Sequence record: OP870147.1
Source: Escherichia phage vB_Eco_F31
Length of the DNA stretch: 64,000 nucleotides
Direction: 5' to 3' (one strand)
Positions 29,228 to 41,971 of this stretch are shown piece after piece (the stretch's first letter is position 1; each line of letters opens with the position of its first letter). Under the pieces are notes generated by a model that saw only the letters and a list, made by a program, of their open reading frames with translations, did not search any database and was not told where the DNA came from. The translations under genes and the position numbers were made by a program.

Positions 29228-29257
29228 ATAGTATCACACATCCATGTGTTTGTAAAC
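29228..29257 (-). promoter_or_regulatory. early-promoter-like motif GTTTAC-N18-TACTAT
   Basis: Minus strand GTTTAC ... TGATACTAT followed by ATCAACAACATGAGGAAA leader; directly after alt stop. Confidence 0.45.
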
Positions 29258-31344
29258 TATCCTTGGACAAACTTAAACGGAACTGATTCTAAATCCATTA
29301 AAGATGCTAACAATTTCAAACCTTTAGGTGCACTAGTTTTTTCTACAAATGAGGAGAACGATACCGGCTCATCCGATTCGATTTCACCCGTCATAGCAAC
29401 CACCTCGCCTGTTTCCATGAGAACATCACCATCGTAAATGACAGCTTCGTCCAACTGGTCCGAGGACATGACTTCAGCTTGAATAAATTTAAGGTTGGAT
29501 TCTAAACCTGCACCAGTGTCAGATGACGCATCTGTAATTTTATTTATCTGCAAGAGAATGCCTCTAGGCAAAATAATTTCTTGCTCATTAGGGTGATTAC
29601 TCAATTGGCCTGGATAAATCACGTTAACTTTATGAGCGCCATCAATAGCCCATCCAACATTAACACGAATTTGTTCTGGCGCATGCATAGCGGTACGTGC
29701 CAGGCTAGGAGAAATAGTAACACCTTCATCATTATTGTCAATGTTAAGCTCTTTTCGAACTTCTTCAGGAGCAAGTCCAAGGGCAACGTTCTCTTTAAAC
29801 CCACCGAAAATAATAGGAGCTAGTGAAGTGGAAACATAGTTTCTGAAGTAGAATACCTTATTTTTAACCATTGCTTCGTAAATAGGCATTCTGATAGACT
29901 GAGCTCTATATAACGTTAGTCCTTCAGGTAAACGGTCTCCATTTAAAAACGCCGAATCAAGACCATCAATAGCGCGTTTAACTTCATCTTCATCTGCAAC
30001 ATCGTAAAAATCTGGTTTATAACGACCTAACAACATATTATTGATATCGGTATACGCAGAAGAGGCATATTCGCGAATAGCTCGTTTTTCAGCAACAGAG
30101 TATTGTTTAGGGTCCCGATTCATTGTTATATTAAAGGTGCCTCTAGCCGATTCTCGTGCATAAGTATACATCACATTAGACAAGAACGCTGATTTACGTT
30201 GTTTCCAAGTTTTTTCAGATACTTCAGCTAAAACATCGTCGGCCAGTTGGAAATTATCACGTCTAAAATCTTCAAACCATTCGTCTTTAATAGAGTCCGC
30301 AATTTCGTTTGCAGCTTCAACAAAAGCAGCTAATGCTTTAACAGATGTTGTTTTTTCAGTTTTAATTTTCTTAGCAAACTTTTCTAAAGTTGGCTTAATA
30401 ACACTACCATAAGAAACTTCATCAGCAAATTTAAAGGATTCATCAATACGATTATAAATCTTATTTTCGATATCAGCAACTAAAGTGCCTTTTGCTGTGG
30501 ACGATGCTTGGGCTAGTACGATTTCATATGCTTCAGGAAGTAATTCGGCCGTAGCTGGGCCACTAACTTCTTTAGCAGAATTTTCGTATTTCTGGAATAA
30601 CTCACCTTCTTGTCGGTCAGCTTCTAAAGATTGACTTGCTGCAATAGCACGACGAGAAATTTTAGTGCGAGCAATAACAGGTTTATCTTTACGTTTTTCT
30701 TCTACCGCGGCAATAGAACCAGCGATAGCCGTTTCTTTGGTGACCTTTTCACCGGTCTTTTTACTCACATAAACTTCGCCAACATCAGAATCTACTTTCG
30801 TATACAACTCTGTGTTAATGTTAGGGATGCCTTTAATATCTTCAATGTTGGCATTTTTACGAACCATCATCACATAGGTGTGTTTACCTGTGAATTGATA
30901 CATTGCCGACAATACTTTAAAACGACCACCGGTTTTAGTAGAAACTAAACGAGCAAGAAGAGTTTGAAGCTGTTGTCCACGTCCTTTCAATTTCTTGGTA
31001 GGGAACCGGAACAGAACTGCATCCATACGAAGAGCTTTAACCTGTTCATATACTGTATTGAAAATGGTGTTGATTGCATCAATAGGAGCAGGACCAAGGC
31101 CATTTTTCAATTCAGCGAGATTACCCTTTTCAGATAGACTCATAATAACAACATGAGCGTATTTGTCGCCAAGTTTAACTTGTTTTACGGCATCGCCTTC
31201 AGAAAGATAAGAGAATAAGCGAACTACGATGTTTGTATCGATATCACCAATTTTCCAGACTTGTGGAACTTTAGCTTTAGGGTTCAAATTGACGACAGGA
31301 AGACTGCCTTCAGATTCAAACACTTCATTTAATTGTTCAGACAT
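29257..31344 (-). CDS. alt: ADP-ribosyltransferase Alt
   Basis: 695 aa; ART motifs Arg (YRAQ), STS (VSTSL) and EQE (NEQEII) in the C-terminal half; position next to gene 30 as in T4. Confidence 0.85.
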   Translation of the reverse strand: MSEQLNEVFESEGSLPVVNLNPKAKVPQVWKIGDIDTNIVVRLFSYLSEGDAVKQVKLGDKYAHVVIMSLSEKGNLAELKNGLGPAPIDAINTIFNTVYEQVKALRMDAVLFRFPTKKLKGRGQQLQTLLARLVSTKTGGRFKVLSAMYQFTGKHTYVMMVRKNANIEDIKGIPNINTELYTKVDSDVGEVYVSKKTGEKVTKETAIAGSIAAVEEKRKDKPVIARTKISRRAIAASQSLEADRQEGELFQKYENSAKEVSGPATAELLPEAYEIVLAQASSTAKGTLVADIENKIYNRIDESFKFADEVSYGSVIKPTLEKFAKKIKTEKTTSVKALAAFVEAANEIADSIKDEWFEDFRRDNFQLADDVLAEVSEKTWKQRKSAFLSNVMYTYARESARGTFNITMNRDPKQYSVAEKRAIREYASSAYTDINNMLLGRYKPDFYDVADEDEVKRAIDGLDSAFLNGDRLPEGLTLYRAQSIRMPIYEAMVKNKVFYFRNYVSTSLAPIIFGGFKENVALGLAPEEVRKELNIDNNDEGVTISPSLARTAMHAPEQIRVNVGWAIDGAHKVNVIYPGQLSNHPNEQEIILPRGILLQINKITDASSDTGAGLESNLKFIQAEVMSSDQLDEAVIYDGDVLMETGEVVAMTGEIESDEPVSFSSFVEKTSAPKGLKLLASLMDLESVPFKFVQG

Positions 31345-31400: not shown

Positions 31401-31588
31401 TAATCCACAATCGGAAGCAAAGTACGATAAACTTCAAAATTAGAGCCTTTTTCGTACTTATCGAAATTGTCCATAAAAATATGATAGGAATCGTTATTAG
31501 GAAAATCTAATATAATCTGAGAGCAAGAGGTGGAAACATCTCCACCATCCTTCTTAGCTACAATAACTGTTTCTAAATAAGCTTTCAT
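31400..31588 (-). CDS. hypothetical protein (62 aa from ATG at 31588)
   Basis: Track start at 31609 is GTG; ATG at 31588 overlaps ligase stop (TAATG). Confidence 0.45.
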   Translation of the reverse strand: MKAYLETVIVAKKDGGDVSTSCSQIILDFPNNDSYHIFMDNFDKYEKGSNFEVYRTLLPIVD

Positions 31589-33081
31589 TATAAACCTGTC
31601 TGGGACCACGGTCCAAATACGTCTTCAAACGAATCCGCTTCTGTTTTATCAAAACGGAACCCTTTAATAATTGGAAGGAAAATACCTACAGTTCCTTCAC
31701 GTCCTTTAGAATGAACCCAACCATTGCATTCACAATCAGCGATACGTCCAATTAATTTACCTTCACGAGCTTCGGCCATTAATCGTTCACGGTCCAAATC
31801 ATGACGCTCATCTAAAGGAATAAGAACCTTTACACCATCAACTGTTTTATGAGTTGTATCTTTAAAACCTGAACCACAATCGGTTGTAATACGACGACAA
31901 CGTGATACGAGTTCGACACCACCTAATTTGTTAGGGTCTTTAGAGTGTTCATAGTATCCTACAACTTCTAAAGCGATATCAATAACTTCTTTAAATTTAA
32001 TTAGGTTCTTAGAGCGTTTGTTTTCCCAATATGAATCACGGTTTTTAAGGATAATACCTTCAAGACCTTGGTCAACATATTTTTTATAAACCACTTTAGC
32101 TTCGTCAAGATTACGAACTAACTGATTTTCAATTGGCTCAATTCGTTTAAAGCCTTCAGCCATATTTTCAAGAGCAGCAAAACGAACATCGTATTTCTGA
32201 CCTTTAATTTTGCCATCAGAATAGACTTCATCTAAAGGAACATAGTCCCAGGCTTGAAGAACCATACCTTCAGCTTCTTTAGGAGAAATAGTCCCTTGAA
32301 GAGATTTATTTGCTAAACCGTTTGAAGTGCTACGGTCCGCAACTTGTACTTCTTCGGATTCTTCATTATCACCAAATAAGAACGACAGGTCATTTCCTGA
32401 GCTCACAGCCTTTTTAATATCAAATGAATGGTAAACTAATTCACCGTCGATTAAAACCCCATTAGGGTGTCTTTCACGAGCTTCTTTAGTCATTTCCATT
32501 AGTTCATCTGCTAATAGAGTAAGACCATGATATTCGTTGCCGGCACGAGAAAAGAATTGAACACCATCATAGCGAACTTCAGCGAAACAACGAGCACCAT
32601 CGGCTTTTAATTGAGCAAATGCAGGCCATTTAATATTTTTAGTAATCAATTTCTCATCATATGCAGATGCTAACATCTGTGGTTGCAATTGAATAAGTCC
32701 AGGCCACACCTTATTCGCGATAGACACTGAAGCACCTACTTCAAGGTCGCGCATCATTACACGACGAAGGACTTCTACATCATCAGGTTTACCGTCAGCG
32801 ATATAACCCATGAGCTCTTTAATTGCAGCATTACCAGTGAGTTTACGAGTGGCTAATGTGAACTCAATAAAATCCAACATGTCATCTAATTCAAGAAGAC
32901 CATACGCTTGAGACCTTTCACCTGGTCCTGGCCATTTCTTAATATAATACTGGATACCACGTGCATATGTTAAACGATACACACGTTCAAGTAATTTGTT
33001 GTCCTTATTTTTCTTAAGGATTTCCTGTTTTGTTTTAGTAGAACCGATCGCAGCTATTTGGTTTAAAATATCTAAAATCAT
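31588..33081 (-). CDS. 30: ATP-dependent DNA ligase gp30
   Basis: 497 aa; adenylation motif region (KADGARCF); size and position as T4 DNA ligase. Confidence 0.9.
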   Translation of the reverse strand: MILDILNQIAAIGSTKTKQEILKKNKDNKLLERVYRLTYARGIQYYIKKWPGPGERSQAYGLLELDDMLDFIEFTLATRKLTGNAAIKELMGYIADGKPDDVEVLRRVMMRDLEVGASVSIANKVWPGLIQLQPQMLASAYDEKLITKNIKWPAFAQLKADGARCFAEVRYDGVQFFSRAGNEYHGLTLLADELMEMTKEARERHPNGVLIDGELVYHSFDIKKAVSSGNDLSFLFGDNEESEEVQVADRSTSNGLANKSLQGTISPKEAEGMVLQAWDYVPLDEVYSDGKIKGQKYDVRFAALENMAEGFKRIEPIENQLVRNLDEAKVVYKKYVDQGLEGIILKNRDSYWENKRSKNLIKFKEVIDIALEVVGYYEHSKDPNKLGGVELVSRCRRITTDCGSGFKDTTHKTVDGVKVLIPLDERHDLDRERLMAEAREGKLIGRIADCECNGWVHSKGREGTVGIFLPIIKGFRFDKTEADSFEDVFGPWSQTGL

Positions 33082-33347
33082 TTGATGTCCTCGATTTTGG
33101 TTACGGTTCTATTATAAGCCACTTCATCTAGAAGCGATTTCAGCGTTTTCTGATAAGTTGTAATCCATTTACCGAGTCCTTCAACATAGTATTCTGAAAT
33201 GTAGATGAACCCTTGTTCAACACACTCTTTAAATATTTCTGTGTCTTTTACTGAACGAAACAATGGCCAGTCTCGAAAGAACATGTTAACGTGACCGTAG
33301 TCACGTGTGGTATTTTTGCCATCTGTAATATCATGAACTACAAACAT
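33078..33347 (-). CDS. hypothetical protein (89 aa), position of T4 30.1
   Basis: ORF overlapping ligase start by 4 nt; positional assignment only. Confidence 0.5.
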   Translation of the reverse strand: MFVVHDITDGKNTTRDYGHVNMFFRDWPLFRSVKDTEIFKECVEQGFIYISEYYVEGLGKWITTYQKTLKSLLDEVAYNRTVTKIEDIK

Positions 33348-33356
33348 AATTAACCC

Positions 33357-34181
33357 TTAACAATTTATAGACCAAGTCCATTTAGACGAATCTAAAGGAA
33401 AGTTTTGAATCGTCCACCACGGCTGCATATCAGTTGGTCCTGGGGTTCGCCAGGTATATGGAGTACGTGTTGTCGAGGGGCCACCAATTTGATTAGGCCA
33501 TGCACCTGGACTTGTTGCACCAGATTCTTTAAGCAAATCCGCCAATCGTTTTAAAAGGTCTTCACGATCTGAATCTGAATTATTCTTAGGCAGAACCAAA
33601 CGAGATTCAATATCATCCCACGTGTGTACACGTTGTGCAGTACGAGGAATGGCATCACGTTCACCACGAGCCAACCAATAAATCGGTACATTAAGAATTT
33701 CTGCCGCATGGTCACAATGATGAGCTAAATCGTCAACGTAACAAATTACGTTATATTTTGTTTTAGCTAGTTCGAATAATTGTTCCTTTGAAGAATCATG
33801 ACCACACATCATTACTTCAGAGAAAGCGCCTGGGAACAAAGCATTCAAATTAAATTGTCTATTCAATCGAGCATCAATTGAATCACCTAGCGCCGTCACG
33901 GCTACAAAATTATAGTCTTCTTTTAGTTTATTGATAACTCGAAGAGCATCAGAATAAGGCGCTAAGTAACGAATAAAATCAGAGCTATTATATTTTTCTA
34001 TTAATTGTTTACCAAGGTTATCGTCGGTATTGAACAGTTTACCAGGAGAAATAAATTTTTCGTCCTGAATCATTTTTAAAATATGTTCTAATGGAAGGTT
34101 ATATTTTTGGGCAAAATAAGGAAGTCCAGATTGCCAGCTTAAACATACACCATCAATATCAGTCAAAATAGTAGGCTTCAT
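33357..34181 (-). CDS. HAD-superfamily hydrolase-like protein (274 aa), position of T4 30.2
   Basis: N-terminal DIDGV (HAD motif I) and later YVDD (motif IV-like); unusual W/P-rich low-complexity C-terminal ~55 aa. Confidence 0.6.
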   Translation of the reverse strand: MKPTILTDIDGVCLSWQSGLPYFAQKYNLPLEHILKMIQDEKFISPGKLFNTDDNLGKQLIEKYNSSDFIRYLAPYSDALRVINKLKEDYNFVAVTALGDSIDARLNRQFNLNALFPGAFSEVMMCGHDSSKEQLFELAKTKYNVICYVDDLAHHCDHAAEILNVPIYWLARGERDAIPRTAQRVHTWDDIESRLVLPKNNSDSDREDLLKRLADLLKESGATSPGAWPNQIGGPSTTRTPYTWRTPGPTDMQPWWTIQNFPLDSSKWTWSINC

Positions 34182-34645
34182 AAAGAGTCTCTTAATAGGT
34201 TTAACACGTCAATAAATTCATCTTCAGTTAGTATTGTATCATCTTTTGTTAGGTGGCTGGCCATGCTGTGCTTCAAAATTTTTCCTTTAGAGGCTTGTAA
34301 GGCATCACGAAACCCCTTGTTTTGGATCGCGGCTTCAAAATATGCATTTGTGTATAATTCTTTCCACGCTTCGGAGTATCTTGAAAATGGAACTCCTAAC
34401 CAGAAGAGAGTCCCACGGTCCTGAGCTCTTGCGTAAGACCTTCCAGCTTGCTGTGCAGCCAATCCAGACAACCCAAATATACGTCTTTGTTGTTCAACAT
34501 TTTTCACCTTACATCCTTGGAGAAATCCTTCAAGACCTCCGAATTGAATACCATCCATAACAAAAGGCCATTGAGCAAAGTTACTTAATGCACATGACGG
34601 CCACTTGAAATTACTTCTTATTTCTAATTCAGACATCTTTAACAC
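34178..34645 (-). CDS. NADAR / YbiA-like domain protein (155 aa), position of T4 30.3
   Basis: Segments SNFAQWPF..DG and LEGFLQGCK resemble YbiA/NADAR (DUF1768) core motifs as recalled; track start is GTG, alternative ATG at 34636. Confidence 0.55.
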   Translation of the reverse strand: MLKMSELEIRSNFKWPSCALSNFAQWPFVMDGIQFGGLEGFLQGCKVKNVEQQRRIFGLSGLAAQQAGRSYARAQDRGTLFWLGVPFSRYSEAWKELYTNAYFEAAIQNKGFRDALQASKGKILKHSMASHLTKDDTILTEDEFIDVLNLLRDSL

Positions 34646-34847
34646 TTATAATTTCAACATCAGCCCAATGTCCGTATCCAGGTATACGGTCTTCGATAGA
34701 TAAATTTCTGTCATTTTTAGGCATTTTAATTGACGTAACGTATGGTTCTAAACGGTTTTCCGCGTAATATGGAAAAACGTCGGTTACACGATAAGTAACT
34801 TCAATCATTTCCATACCAAACAATTTCTGGATTAATTTATTCAACAT
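34629..34847 (-). CDS. hypothetical protein (72 aa)
   Basis: ATG ORF in operon orientation, overlaps neighbours by a few nt. Confidence 0.45.
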   Translation of the reverse strand: MLNKLIQKLFGMEMIEVTYRVTDVFPYYAENRLEPYVTSIKMPKNDRNLSIEDRIPGYGHWADVEIISVKDV

Positions 34848-35034
34848 GTTTCAACCCTTTAATAGGAGATAACTCTTTACCCATACGTATGTCAGAAGTC
34901 CCATCAACCCATTGAACAGCATACGCTTCATTGATAATTCCAGCGGCAGTTTTAAATTCGTTGAGAACTTTAAAAATCATCCCAGGGATTCCAACACCTT
35001 TTAATTGGACTGTTTGTGCTATTAAAAATTTCAT
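34837..35034 (-). CDS. hypothetical protein (65 aa)
   Basis: ATG ORF in operon orientation. Confidence 0.45.
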   Translation of the reverse strand: MKFLIAQTVQLKGVGIPGMIFKVLNEFKTAAGIINEAYAVQWVDGTSDIRMGKELSPIKGLKHVE

Positions 35035-35088
35035 ATTTTTCCACTTACTAAAGAAATCATTATACTCTAATCCGTCCTTGGATGTACA

Positions 35089-35703
35089 CTACTTAATGAA
35101 ATTAATTTCTACCGGATGAACAACAGGTTGAGCAGTGATATATTGAGTAATTGCTTTCATGACTAGAGCTTCAGAACCAGGATTTTTCTCAACGAATTCA
35201 CGTGCTAGGTTATGAGCTTCGAGTTCACTCAATAAACCGGAACGCTGGCATCCACGGTCTTGAGTACCCTGTTCAGATAAAAGGACTACTACATATTTTT
35301 CATCGTCGTAGGGCTTAGCCAGTTGAGCAAATGTTCCTTTACTTCCAAAAGGAGAGTTATGTCGCCACATCACACCGTGAGGAGTTTCAACCTTCGTATA
35401 TTCGTGCGGTCCATTTTTCTTAGTTTCTTGATGTGGAACTTCATAGACCTTAGGGTTAGGACATTCAATAAAATGCTCATCTAAATCGGTCGAGAATATT
35501 AAAGTAAAACAATTACTGAATTTACCAACACCGGCCTGATAAATTTTACCTTCAGAAGTTCTAATTTCACAAACTGAGCCGGCATCAGTAACTTCTAAAA
35601 CTTCAAAAGGCTCAATAAGGTCATATGAGAACATGTTTTTAAGGCGTGGAGTAATATCCCCATTTTTAAAATTCATTTTATAAAAAGTATTAACTTTAAA
35701 CAT
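35089..35703 (-). CDS. hypothetical protein (204 aa from ATG at 35703)
   Basis: Track start at 35733 lies inside a GC hairpin; second ATG at 35703 has GAGG RBS 7 nt upstream. Confidence 0.55.
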   Translation of the reverse strand: MFKVNTFYKMNFKNGDITPRLKNMFSYDLIEPFEVLEVTDAGSVCEIRTSEGKIYQAGVGKFSNCFTLIFSTDLDEHFIECPNPKVYEVPHQETKKNGPHEYTKVETPHGVMWRHNSPFGSKGTFAQLAKPYDDEKYVVVLLSEQGTQDRGCQRSGLLSELEAHNLAREFVEKNPGSEALVMKAITQYITAQPVVHPVEINFIK

Positions 35704-35715
35704 AATTTCCTCAGT

Positions 35716-35731
35716 GGGAGCCGAAGCTCCC
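35716..35731 (-). terminator. intercistronic hairpin GGGAGC-UUCG-GCUCCC (minus strand), no U-tract
   Basis: 6-bp stem with UUCG loop between stop of 121-aa gene and RBS of 204-aa gene. Confidence 0.35.
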
Positions 35732-35738
35732 AATTAAT

Positions 35739-38213: not shown

Positions 38214-38795
38214 TTATTCACCACAAAAGTTTCGGATTTGTTCCCAATTCAGAGAACGAAGATTATTACGAGAGTACTGAATTACTTCAATACCGGCTTG
38301 TTTTAGAATGTCTGCCCAATTTTCAGGAGATCGGTCGTATAATTCTGCATATACAACCTTTTTAATACCTGACTGTGTAATAGCTTTAGTGCAATCAGGA
38401 CACGGAGAAAGCGTCGTATATAACGTAGCACCTTCAATAGAATTACCTTTACGAGCTGCAAATAAAATTGCATTCAGTTCAGCATGGATTTCATTATTAG
38501 CAGACCATGCACTATGAGCGGCCCGATGTTCTTTAGCCAAAACAAAATTATCCACCCGTCCAAATGCTGTAGTGCCTTCTTTATGCCCAGCAACGATGAC
38601 CGGGCTTGGTTTATTCTTCAACCAACCGTTTTCGGATGCATGTTCGCAACAGTTTGTACCACCTGAAGGAGAGCCATTATAACCTGTAGAAATAATGCGT
38701 CCATCTTTTTCAATGACGGCGCCAACTTTCCATGAACAACATTTTGATTCTTGAGAAATCAGATATGCAATCTGAAGGTATGTGCTAGCTTTCAT
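38214..38795 (-). CDS. cd: dCMP deaminase
   Basis: 193 aa, same length as T4 Cd; zinc-binding deaminase motifs (HAE..., SPCPDC). Confidence 0.9.
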   Translation of the reverse strand: MKASTYLQIAYLISQESKCCSWKVGAVIEKDGRIISTGYNGSPSGGTNCCEHASENGWLKNKPSPVIVAGHKEGTTAFGRVDNFVLAKEHRAAHSAWSANNEIHAELNAILFAARKGNSIEGATLYTTLSPCPDCTKAITQSGIKKVVYAELYDRSPENWADILKQAGIEVIQYSRNNLRSLNWEQIRNFCGE

Positions 38796-39787
38796 TATTG
38801 AACCTTATTAATATAAGTTAACAGCTCTTTAGTTTGTTCCCAACTGATGCACGCATCGGTAACGGAAACGCCATAGGACATATTATCAGAAATTTTTTGA
38901 TTTCCTTCATGTAGGAACGATTCTATCATAATTCCTTTGACCAAATCATTAGCTGCTAAATTTTTACCAATACCAATTTGATTGCTATAATGCCCATCAG
39001 CGTTTGCATGGCTACAGTCAACCATTACATAATGATTCAGACCTACTGCCCTTGCTTTGTTAGAAGCTTCTTGAATATCAGAAGAATGATAGTTCGGGCC
39101 GTTGGTCCCGCCACGCAATACGATATGCGTATTCTGATTACCTTCAGCTTCAACAATGCCTACAGTACCATCGACGTCCATACCCATATACCGATGAGGC
39201 CAGGCGGCACTATACATCGCGTCTGTAGCTACTTTAATAGAACCATTGGTTGCGTTCTTGAAGCCTACGCACATCGGTAGACCTGAAGCAATTTCACGAT
39301 GTGTCTGACTTTCAGTCGTACGGGCACCAATAGCAACCCATGAGAAAATACCAGAAAGATACTTAATCGTGAATGGGTCTAATACTTCAGTTGCTAATGG
39401 AAGTCCCATACGTAGAAGTTTACGACACAATGTTCGTGCAACTATAAGACCGTGGTTCATATCAAAACTTCCGTCAAGATATGGATCATTTACAAGACCT
39501 TTCCAACCTACGGTAGTTCGAGGCTTTTCAAAATAAACGCGCATCACTAACAGAACATTAGGAAGACGAGTTTGAAGTTCAGCCAGACGTTTGCCGTATT
39601 CAACAGCAGCAATAGGGTCATGAATTGAACAAGGACCTACAACAATAAGTTTGCGTGGGTCTTCACCGTTCATAATCGAATTAACTTGTTCGCGATGAGA
39701 AGCCACTTGTGATGCGTAAGCTTCCGACAAAGGAATAATCTCGGCCAGTTCTTTTGGAGAAATAAGTTTTCCGACGACAGGTAACAT
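38795..39787 (-). CDS. 3-deoxy-D-arabino-heptulosonate-7-phosphate (DAHP) synthase, class I (AroG/AroF/AroH family)
   Basis: 330 aa; VGPCSIHD, VYFEKPRTTVGWKGL, GARTTESQ, DCSHAN, ESFLHEGNQ, SVTDACISWE align with E. coli AroG catalytic/metal-binding motifs; AAGGA RBS before ATG at 39787. Confidence 0.9.
   Translation of the reverse strand: MLPVVGKLISPKELAEIIPLSEAYASQVASHREQVNSIMNGEDPRKLIVVGPCSIHDPIAAVEYGKRLAELQTRLPNVLLVMRVYFEKPRTTVGWKGLVNDPYLDGSFDMNHGLIVARTLCRKLLRMGLPLATEVLDPFTIKYLSGIFSWVAIGARTTESQTHREIASGLPMCVGFKNATNGSIKVATDAMYSAAWPHRYMGMDVDGTVGIVEAEGNQNTHIVLRGGTNGPNYHSSDIQEASNKARAVGLNHYVMVDCSHANADGHYSNQIGIGKNLAANDLVKGIMIESFLHEGNQKISDNMSYGVSVTDACISWEQTKELLTYINKVQ

Positions 39788-40884: not shown

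Positions 40885-40885
<1 letters not shown>
40694..40885 (-). CDS. hypothetical protein (63 aa)
   Basis: ATG at 40885 overlaps pseT stop; overlaps next ORF by 20 nt. Confidence 0.45.

Positions 40886-41971
<1,086 letters not shown>

Follow-up and report, generated by a model that had tools for sequence, protein, structure and literature searches.

The window, that is the whole stretch of 64,000 nucleotides analysed here (Escherichia phage vB_Eco_F31, OP870147.1), hosts a run of densely packed genes extending from alt to 30.8, all located on the minus strand. The genome is that of an RB69-type Mosigvirus, a T4-like phage. The interval 33000-35100 is 99.8% identical to the DNA of Escherichia phage APCEc01, Mosigvirus mar005p1. 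The window is RB69-like gene by gene, and its likeness to T4 is distant: the DNA ligase is 99% identical to that of RB69 and 67% identical to that of T4, and the genes flanking adfN encode proteins sharing 53-73% identity with their T4 counterparts. The features discussed below are the following.

29257-31344, minus strand: alt
Between alt and DNA ligase, minus strand: alt.1
31588..33081, minus strand: gene 30, encoding the ATP-dependent DNA ligase; adjoins the HAD gene in a conserved manner
33078-33347, minus strand: 30.1 (DUF3045)
33357-34181, minus strand: gene 30.2 (274-aa ORF), encoding gp30.2, a predicted HAD phosphatase
33357..33590, minus strand: C-terminal extension of gene 30.2, residues 198-274 plus stop; helix 203-219 followed by a disordered tail rich in Pro and aromatic residues
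33591..34181, minus strand: catalytic core of gene 30.2, residues 1-197; predicted C1-capped, NT5C-like HAD phosphatase
34178..34181, minus strand: 4-nt overlap ATGA, adfN stop and 30.2 start
34178..34636, minus strand: adfN (gene 30.3), 152 aa, intact allele; predicted NADAR-fold DNA ADP-ribosylglycohydrolase
34181..34225, minus strand: last 15 adfN codons, residues 138-152, C-terminal helix, lost in RB69
34268..34270, minus strand: codon H123, marker His of the phage NADAR subfamily
34508..34510, minus strand: codon K43, catalytic Lys of AdfN
34529..34531, minus strand: codon E36, catalytic Glu of AdfN
34629..34636, minus strand: 8-nt overlap ATGTCTGA, adfN start codon and 30.4 stop
34629..34847, minus strand: gene 30.4, 72 aa, adjoining adfN upstream (phrog_2042, E=3e-35)
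Beyond 30.4, minus strand: 30.5, a 214-aa ORF, 30.7 and 30.8
40885-41784, elsewhere in the window: PseT/PNKP

Genes 30.2 and adfN had been singled out in an earlier note as a HAD-like hydrolase and a NADAR-like protein. Both ORFs are real and are found on one strand, closely packed, in the vicinity of DNA ligase and alt as the note described; they match T4 30.2 and 30.3, the correspondence it had supposed (~70% and 96% identity, respectively). The overlaps at the two ends of adfN were read directly from the sequence, and the ATGA overlap with 30.2 is found in T4 as well. A promoter and terminator scan returned 25 sites versus 19.3±4.2 expected, a number not above chance. In public records, both here and in near-identical genomes, the two genes are annotated as "hypothetical protein", and their names can therefore be updated.

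adfN and its product

The mechanical ORF corresponding to adfN begins with a GTG at 34645 and is 155 aa long (34178-34645), as the earlier note had it. The real start is almost certainly the ATG at 34636, yielding a protein of 152 aa, because from this codon the alignment with T4 gp30.3 is gap-free over 152/152 residues, the N-termini of all homologues agree, the RefSeq annotation of APCEc01 agrees too, and the catalytic residues carry the published T4 numbering, E36 and K43.

The protein matches the Pfam family PF08010 (Phage_30_3) over its full length with E=2.2e-69, far beyond chance. Identity to T4 gp30.3 amounts to 146/152 residues, and gp30.3 is, as judged from sequence, the orthologue of the T4 protein. 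Sixty gp30.3 sequences have been aligned for comparison. Invariant positions are P13, A16-L17-S18-N19-F20, F25, E36-G37-F38, Q40, K43, Q50, A61, A112, H123 and L136-T137, which include the segments in which the earlier note had recognized a NADAR core. The catalytic E-x-x-x-Q-x-x-K motif of NADAR proteins, placed after the (L/F)SNF strand, is present (E36, Q40, K43), and E36 and K43 align with the corresponding Glu and Lys of E. coli YbiA. H123 is the sole invariant His of the alignment. A sequence search with the family profile found YbiA with E=0.0088, aligning the SNF...E..Q..K motif. The earlier note had proposed a comparison with the NADAR model of Pfam (PF08719) as a check, and here no match was found at E<=1. 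The missing match reflects a split of the Pfam models, the phage branch being filed separately as PF08010, and not a difference in fold; one homologue, P0064, matches both models. The AlphaFold2 model (pLDDT 92.8, pTM 0.88) is a single domain having the NADAR fold expected by the note, with a C-terminal helix at residues 138-151, and YbiA is among its top structural matches.

T4 gp30.3 has been renamed AdfN (anti-DarT factor NADAR) by Johannesman et al. (Nat Commun 2025, PMC11825919). In vitro, T4 AdfN strips ADP-ribose from DarT1-modified DNA; it is impaired by the changes E36A (in vivo and in vitro) and K43A, and deletion of adfN makes T4 sensitive to DarTG1 (PMC11825919). A T4 transposon screen carried out under DarTG1 (10.1101/2025.11.20.689424, Data S6), in which 30.3 scored a log2FC of -7.25 (padj 0), is an independent confirmation that T4 needs this gene. 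The counter-defence against DarT guessed by the earlier note has therefore been experimentally shown for T4 gp30.3, and its suspicion that the two genes may be conserved but uncharacterised does not hold for 30.3, a published anti-DarTG1 enzyme, whereas it does for gp30.2, an uncharacterised HAD phosphatase. Bioinformatic predictions of AdfN, an orphan antitoxin-like enzyme in a lytic phage, date from 2012-2023, and the proof followed in 2025. Its role as a guanine-ADP-ribose DNA glycohydrolase countering DarTG1 is already known, and its rediscovery here adds no new biology.

The present analysis contributes the folds and motifs, the orthology, the integrity of the allele and the statistics on synteny; what is shown of the activity, of the catalytic residues and of the need for the gene under DarTG1 comes from the literature on the 96%-identical T4 protein. 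By analogy with the latter, gp30.3 of this phage is expected to have AdfN activity. On infection of a DarTG1 host, the DarT1 toxin would ADP-ribosylate guanines in single-stranded phage DNA and block replication. AdfN would hydrolyse the bond between ADP-ribose and guanine by means of E36, K43 and the phage-type H123; with ADP-ribose released and normal DNA restored, the phage could replicate.

gp30.3 has the catalytic residues and the C-terminal helix in common with T4 AdfN, as well as the genomic position between 30.4 and 30.2. It differs by six substitutions and by residing in an RB69-type Mosigvirus. The distance from DarG1-type NADAR antitoxins and from PnNADAR and YbiA (PDB 8bat, 8bau, 2b3w; PMC11543638) is much larger. 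Identity ranges from 13 to 20%, the N-terminal extension of DarG1 is missing, no DarT toxin gene adjoins adfN, and uninfected cells are not protected from DarT1 toxicity by T4 AdfN (PMC11825919). A stand-alone protein of 152 aa devoid of the extension has the features of the phage NADAR, or AdfN(T4), subfamily. Phage NADARs carry a His at the position of PnNADAR E125, where Glu or Asp are found elsewhere (Schuller et al. 2023, PMC11543638; PMC11825919). In gp30.3 this residue is presumably H123.

RB69 is sensitive to DarTG1, as its AdfN has lost the last 15 residues through insertion of a T at position 411, and truncation of T4 AdfN at the same point lowers activity (PMC11825919). The adfN DNA of the window is the RB69 allele minus the extra, inactivating T ('aatactaac-tgaag' in the window, 'aatactaacTtgaag' in RB69), the insertion point corresponding to position 34226. 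As the T is absent, the reading frame continues through the C-terminal helix. This phage is predicted to resist DarTG1, because its adfN is complete, in contrast to that of RB69 with its frameshift. The presence of an intact adfN in an RB69-type phage confirms that the RB69 frameshift is a strain lesion. Codon differences between adfN and its T4 counterpart are 37 synonymous and 6 non-synonymous. The abundance of synonymous changes points to strong purifying selection, and rules out recent horizontal transfer as the cause of the 96% identity.

gp30.2, a HAD phosphatase with a variable tail

The product of gene 30.2 matches phrog_420 with E=1.1e-77, again far beyond chance. It is 97% identical to the RB69 protein and about 70% identical to the T4 protein (69% by BLASTP local alignment, 73% by global alignment), and is the orthologue of T4 gp30.2. 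Residues D8, D10, K132, D150 and D151 are invariant in 58 aligned homologues, and T96 is conserved in at least 90% of them. Motif I (D8-I-D10-G-V12) has the second Asp typical of phosphatases, and D8 and D10 are invariant also in a broader set of 117 sequences. With T96 as motif II, K132 as motif III and D150-D151 as motif IV, gp30.2 carries all HAD motifs, including the DIDGV and YVDD stretches on which the HAD assignment had originally been made. The predicted structure, confident at residues 1-197, is in agreement with that assignment, being a Rossmannoid HAD fold with a cap. This cap is of the C1 type, made of helices (at 16-72) that separate motif I from motif II.

Direct searches of Pfam, NCBIfam and PDB with single proteins gave little, and family profiles and structure prediction were needed. 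No curated Pfam or NCBIfam HAD model scored above threshold: the match to HAD_2 is sub-threshold (E=0.014, 16 bits vs 23.8), as is that to TIGR01428 (12.7 vs 125.4). Generic HAD models miss gp30.2 because the family is too divergent. A weak alignment with the mitochondrial deoxyribonucleotidase mdN (2jao, E=0.11) superimposes W16-Q-S-G-L of gp30.2 on the F-E-S-G-L ('DFESGL') stretch found directly after motif I. NT5C (PF06941) is not matched by gp30.2 itself; it is reached by 7/58 close family members, one of which or of the more distant relatives, P0250, scored 38.4 bits against a gathering score of 24.8, and by 28 of the 117 distant members (best E=4e-10). Of these 117, 13 match 'Hydrolase' and 8 HAD_2. 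The best match of the broadened gp30.2 profile is S. epidermidis 3bwv (E=7.7e-7, full length), followed by SSM1/Sdt1, mdN and XMP phosphatase, all nucleotide phosphatases. Most of the structural neighbours found in viruses beyond the T4-like family bear the annotation 5' nucleotidase. An exhaustive profile search collected 1,084 cluster representatives at E<=1e-3.

On these data gp30.2 is a HAD phosphatase with a C1 cap, and the family nearest to it is that of the 5'(3')-deoxyribonucleotidases (NT5C), which includes human mdN and cdN, 3bwv and PBS1 Dtm. gp30.2 resembles these proteins in its C1-capped HAD fold, in a DxDGV motif after which an aromatic residue and SGL occur, and in possessing the Lys and DD motifs. 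It differs in scoring below threshold, in having relatives of which only a minority reach NT5C, and in the additional disordered tail. Nucleotidase chemistry is plausible for gp30.2. The protein would work as a Mg2+-dependent phosphomonoesterase, D8 being the nucleophile and D10 the general acid/base. The C1 cap, lying over the active site, would indicate a small-molecule substrate. A (deoxy)nucleoside monophosphate is the most likely one, since the nearest relatives are 5'(3')-deoxyribonucleotidases.

The position next to the ligase gene could be taken to mean that gp30.2 is a DNA-end phosphatase, cooperating with the ligase in the healing and sealing of ends like the HAD domain of T4 polynucleotide kinase. 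This is quite unlikely. C1 caps normally restrict access to HAD active sites to small molecules, and the PNKP phosphatase is capless, whereas gp30.2 is modelled with a cap; the sequence relatives of gp30.2 are nucleotide phosphatases; a PseT/PNKP gene is already available in the window; and T4, which requires the ligase, can dispense with 30.2. In transposon data, insertions were found at 72/72 sites of T4 30.2 on K-12, and the gene was neutral in M9 minimal medium (-0.10).

The tail of gp30.2 is hypervariable. Residues 223-274 are disordered (pLDDT <50), and the tail is about 11% Pro and about 11% aromatic. A long tail (at least 40 aa) is present in 34/58 homologues, and the tail is absent (25 aa or less) in 21/58. 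The tail is of the same type as that of RB69, and cannot be aligned to that of T4 except for a 'TWRTPG' motif. An origin by frameshift was considered and rejected, as no other frame holds the 'GIEY..PT' motif found in T4 and others. Four fusion relatives (P0183, P0238, P0273, P0226) carry extra regions in which no Pfam domains were detected, and these gave no functional clue. A literature search found no paper mentioning gp30.2.

PBS1 Dtm is a characterised phage member of PF06941, a Mg2+-dependent dTMP phosphatase (PMC12697855). Phages do therefore use PF06941 proteins as Mg2+-dependent dNMP phosphatases. The PBS1 rationale is not transferable to gp30.2, because T4-type phages make hydroxymethyl-C DNA, not dU-DNA. 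It is conceivable, though rather unlikely, that gp30.2 is a phage-specific nucleotide phosphatase conditionally important under defences or in hosts outside those screened. To the same limited degree, it might be an editor of nucleotide pools, or might eliminate danger signals of nucleotide type or modified-nucleotide products. One example of a danger signal is dNMP from host DNA breakdown, which triggers systems of the PUA-Cal-HAD type (PMC12871103). Conservation beside DNA ligase across the T4 superfamily is in keeping with this picture, in which the fast-evolving tail would serve for interaction. If it were true, gp30.2 would represent a new anti-defence or auxiliary function, and not a neutral passenger. 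As a large, ligase-linked and NT5C-like family exceeding 1,000 cluster representatives, gp30.2 is a reasonable target for biochemical screening.

Relationship of adfN to gene 30.2 and other neighbours

The association of adfN with gene 30.2 was monitored from both sides. Among 80 viral NADAR loci, only those of the T4/RB69-like group have a gp30.2-type HAD gene directly downstream; such a gene is located 0.7-1.6 kb downstream in six more, and is missing within 4 kb in about 55. Among 78 viral HAD loci, 72 have a ligase homologue immediately downstream in the same orientation, 56 contain alt, and 37 have NADAR upstream, the last group including Acinetobacter-type phages and genomes of 220-235 kb. 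HAD is also present in 26/27 large genomes having NADAR. In 10 of the 26 complete genomes hosting both genes, NADAR and HAD are 54-69 kb apart. On these counts, NADAR-HAD-ligase looks like an old arrangement broken by one clade. The constant neighbour of HAD is DNA ligase, not NADAR. The adjacency to the ligase gene may in turn be no more than a consequence of how strongly gene order is conserved among T4-like genomes.

It is highly probable that gp30.3 is AdfN and gp30.2 an NT5C-like HAD phosphatase, and that the two genes adjoin each other because gene order is conserved, and are not a demonstrated functional pair. The earlier note had implied a joint role. On such a view NADAR and HAD would form one module for ADP-ribose processing or counter-defence. 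gp30.2 could be the additional T-even factor required by T4 AdfN, which is fully active only in T-even infections (PMC11825919), or could dispose of released ADP-ribose and its products. The 4-nt overlap of the genes, the location of NADAR just upstream of HAD in nearly half of the HAD loci, very distant T4-like phages included, and the almost regular co-occurrence in large genomes all speak for such a module, as does the fact that RB69, where T4 AdfN works in trans (PMC11825919), has an intact 30.2. The module is nonetheless very unlikely. In the DarTG1 screen, where only 30.3 and 30.4 were significant, 30.2 scored a log2FC of -0.12 (p=0.61) versus the -7.25 of 30.3 (10.1101/2025.11.20.689424, Data S6), and AdfN therefore does not need gp30.2 to work against DarTG1. 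The two genes are far apart in many genomes, most NADAR loci lack a HAD gene nearby, and HAD follows the ligase. Since the order of T4-like genes is broadly conserved, adjacency alone is weak evidence. As the T-even co-factor of AdfN, gp30.2 is discarded in the case of DarTG1, in view of the T4 transposon data and of synteny, and for this defence the module is largely refuted.

The ATGA overlap, together with the fact that roughly half of the lineages have the genes in the order NADAR-HAD-ligase, leaves room for a link under other conditions. A screen of single genes is also compatible with a redundant contribution of gp30.2 to the T-even factor effect.

The meaning that the earlier note had given to the proximity to alt is not supported, as alt scored -0.01 in the same DarTG1 screen. 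That gp30.3 reverses protein ADP-ribosylation by Alt (or ModA/ModB), or is an N-glycosidase of riboflavin intermediates like YbiA, rather than acting on DNA, could be supposed from the nearby alt gene and the structural match to YbiA, and is extremely improbable, since published assays show T4 AdfN acting on DarT1-modified DNA, phage NADARs act specifically on guanine-linked ADP-ribose and group with NADARs of the DarG1 type, not of the YbiA type (PMC11825919), the Glu defining YbiA is replaced by a His, and alt insertions have no DarTG1 phenotype.

Gene 30.4 is the only other gene significantly depleted in T4 under DarTG1 (log2FC -1.79, padj 0.014; 10.1101/2025.11.20.689424, Data S6). The depletion is specific to DarTG1, as 30.4 has no effect in M9 (-0.05, transposon data). 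A homologous 30.4 ORF upstream of NADAR is confined to 13 loci of the T4/RB69 clade; in other lineages unrelated neighbours take its place. On account of this restriction, gp30.4 was discarded as a conserved partner of NADAR, and its depletion is most simply seen as a polar or translational-coupling effect on adfN. A real partnership of 30.4 with AdfN is possible.

Conservation around adfN and the DarTG1 phenotype of gene 30.4

Two small early proteins of vB_Eco_F31, gp30.3 (the NADAR protein AdfN; 96% identity to T4) and gp30.7 (93%), are conserved far above the products of the surrounding genes, which feature identities to T4 of 57% (30.1), 53% (30.4), 67% (ligase) and 44% (30.8). The comparison suggests an unusually strong constraint on gp30.3 and gp30.7. 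Two further reading frames lie within or next to adfN:

34273-34500, minus strand: 30.3' frame, an out-of-frame ORF internal to 30.3, annotated in T4 (75 aa)
34629-34847, minus strand: gene 30.4, the stop of which overlaps the adfN start

In vB_Eco_F31 the 30.3' frame is interrupted by a stop at codon 35; since it is broken, 30.3' is not conserved in this phage, and is probably not a gene. In the HIDEN-SEQ data, a T4 transposon screen, adfN and T4 30.4 are the only genes significantly depleted under DarTG1 (30.4, log2FC -1.79, padj 0.014), and T4 30.4 is neutral in M9. The depletion of 30.4 could be a polar effect, or 30.4 could be the T-even helper, the factor reported as needed for full AdfN activity in T4.

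gp30.2 and the position of NADAR genes

The HAD phosphatase gp30.2 carries a terminal region that was compared in alignment A3:

33357-33590, minus strand: gp30.2 C-terminal extension

Across T4-like phages the extension is hypervariable in A3: its length runs from 0 to about 130 aa, and its sequence is rich in Pro, Trp and Tyr. A motif fitting G(T)GIEY..(Q/R)PT closes gp30.2 in many lineages, T4 included, and is missing in the RB69 group in the same alignment. The vB_Eco_F31 and T4 extensions differ, TWRTPG being the sole stretch in common. Longer HAD relatives, P0183 (430 aa), P0226 (365 aa), P0238 (591 aa) and P0273 (660 aa), host the HAD domain at either end, and no Pfam domains were found in their regions outside HAD. 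Longer NADAR relatives are P0079 (254 aa) and P0029/P0033 (201 aa).

NADAR-HAD separation concerns viral loci L027, L029, L049, L052, L054, L058, L059, L071, L074 and L075 set against L130, L142, L101, L153, L106, L097, L115, L103, L099 and L100. In one T4-like clade, with genomes of about 160-176 kb, the T4-type NADAR has left the vicinity of the HAD-ligase block and now lies 54-69 kb from it. Other T4-like phages retain the NADAR-HAD-ligase order, even at genome sizes of 220-235 kb.

Genes differing from T4 and RB69

35089-35733, minus strand: 214-aa ORF, phrog_17531 (E=3e-146)
38795-39787, minus strand: DAHP-synthase-family protein, 330 aa, PF00793 (E=5e-75)

The 214-aa ORF occupies the slot of the 95-aa gp30.6 of T4 and RB69. 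A Pfam search gave no match, and BLASTP revealed no relationship to T4 gp30.6 (E=1.6); being unrelated, the ORF is a lineage-specific replacement.

The DAHP-synthase-family gene, missing in the corresponding T4 and RB69 regions, is located directly upstream of dCMP deaminase. Its product is annotated as phospho-2-dehydro-3-deoxyheptonate aldolase in the near-identical relative APCEc01. This T4-like phage thus carries an auxiliary metabolic gene for an aldolase of the shikimate or KDO type.
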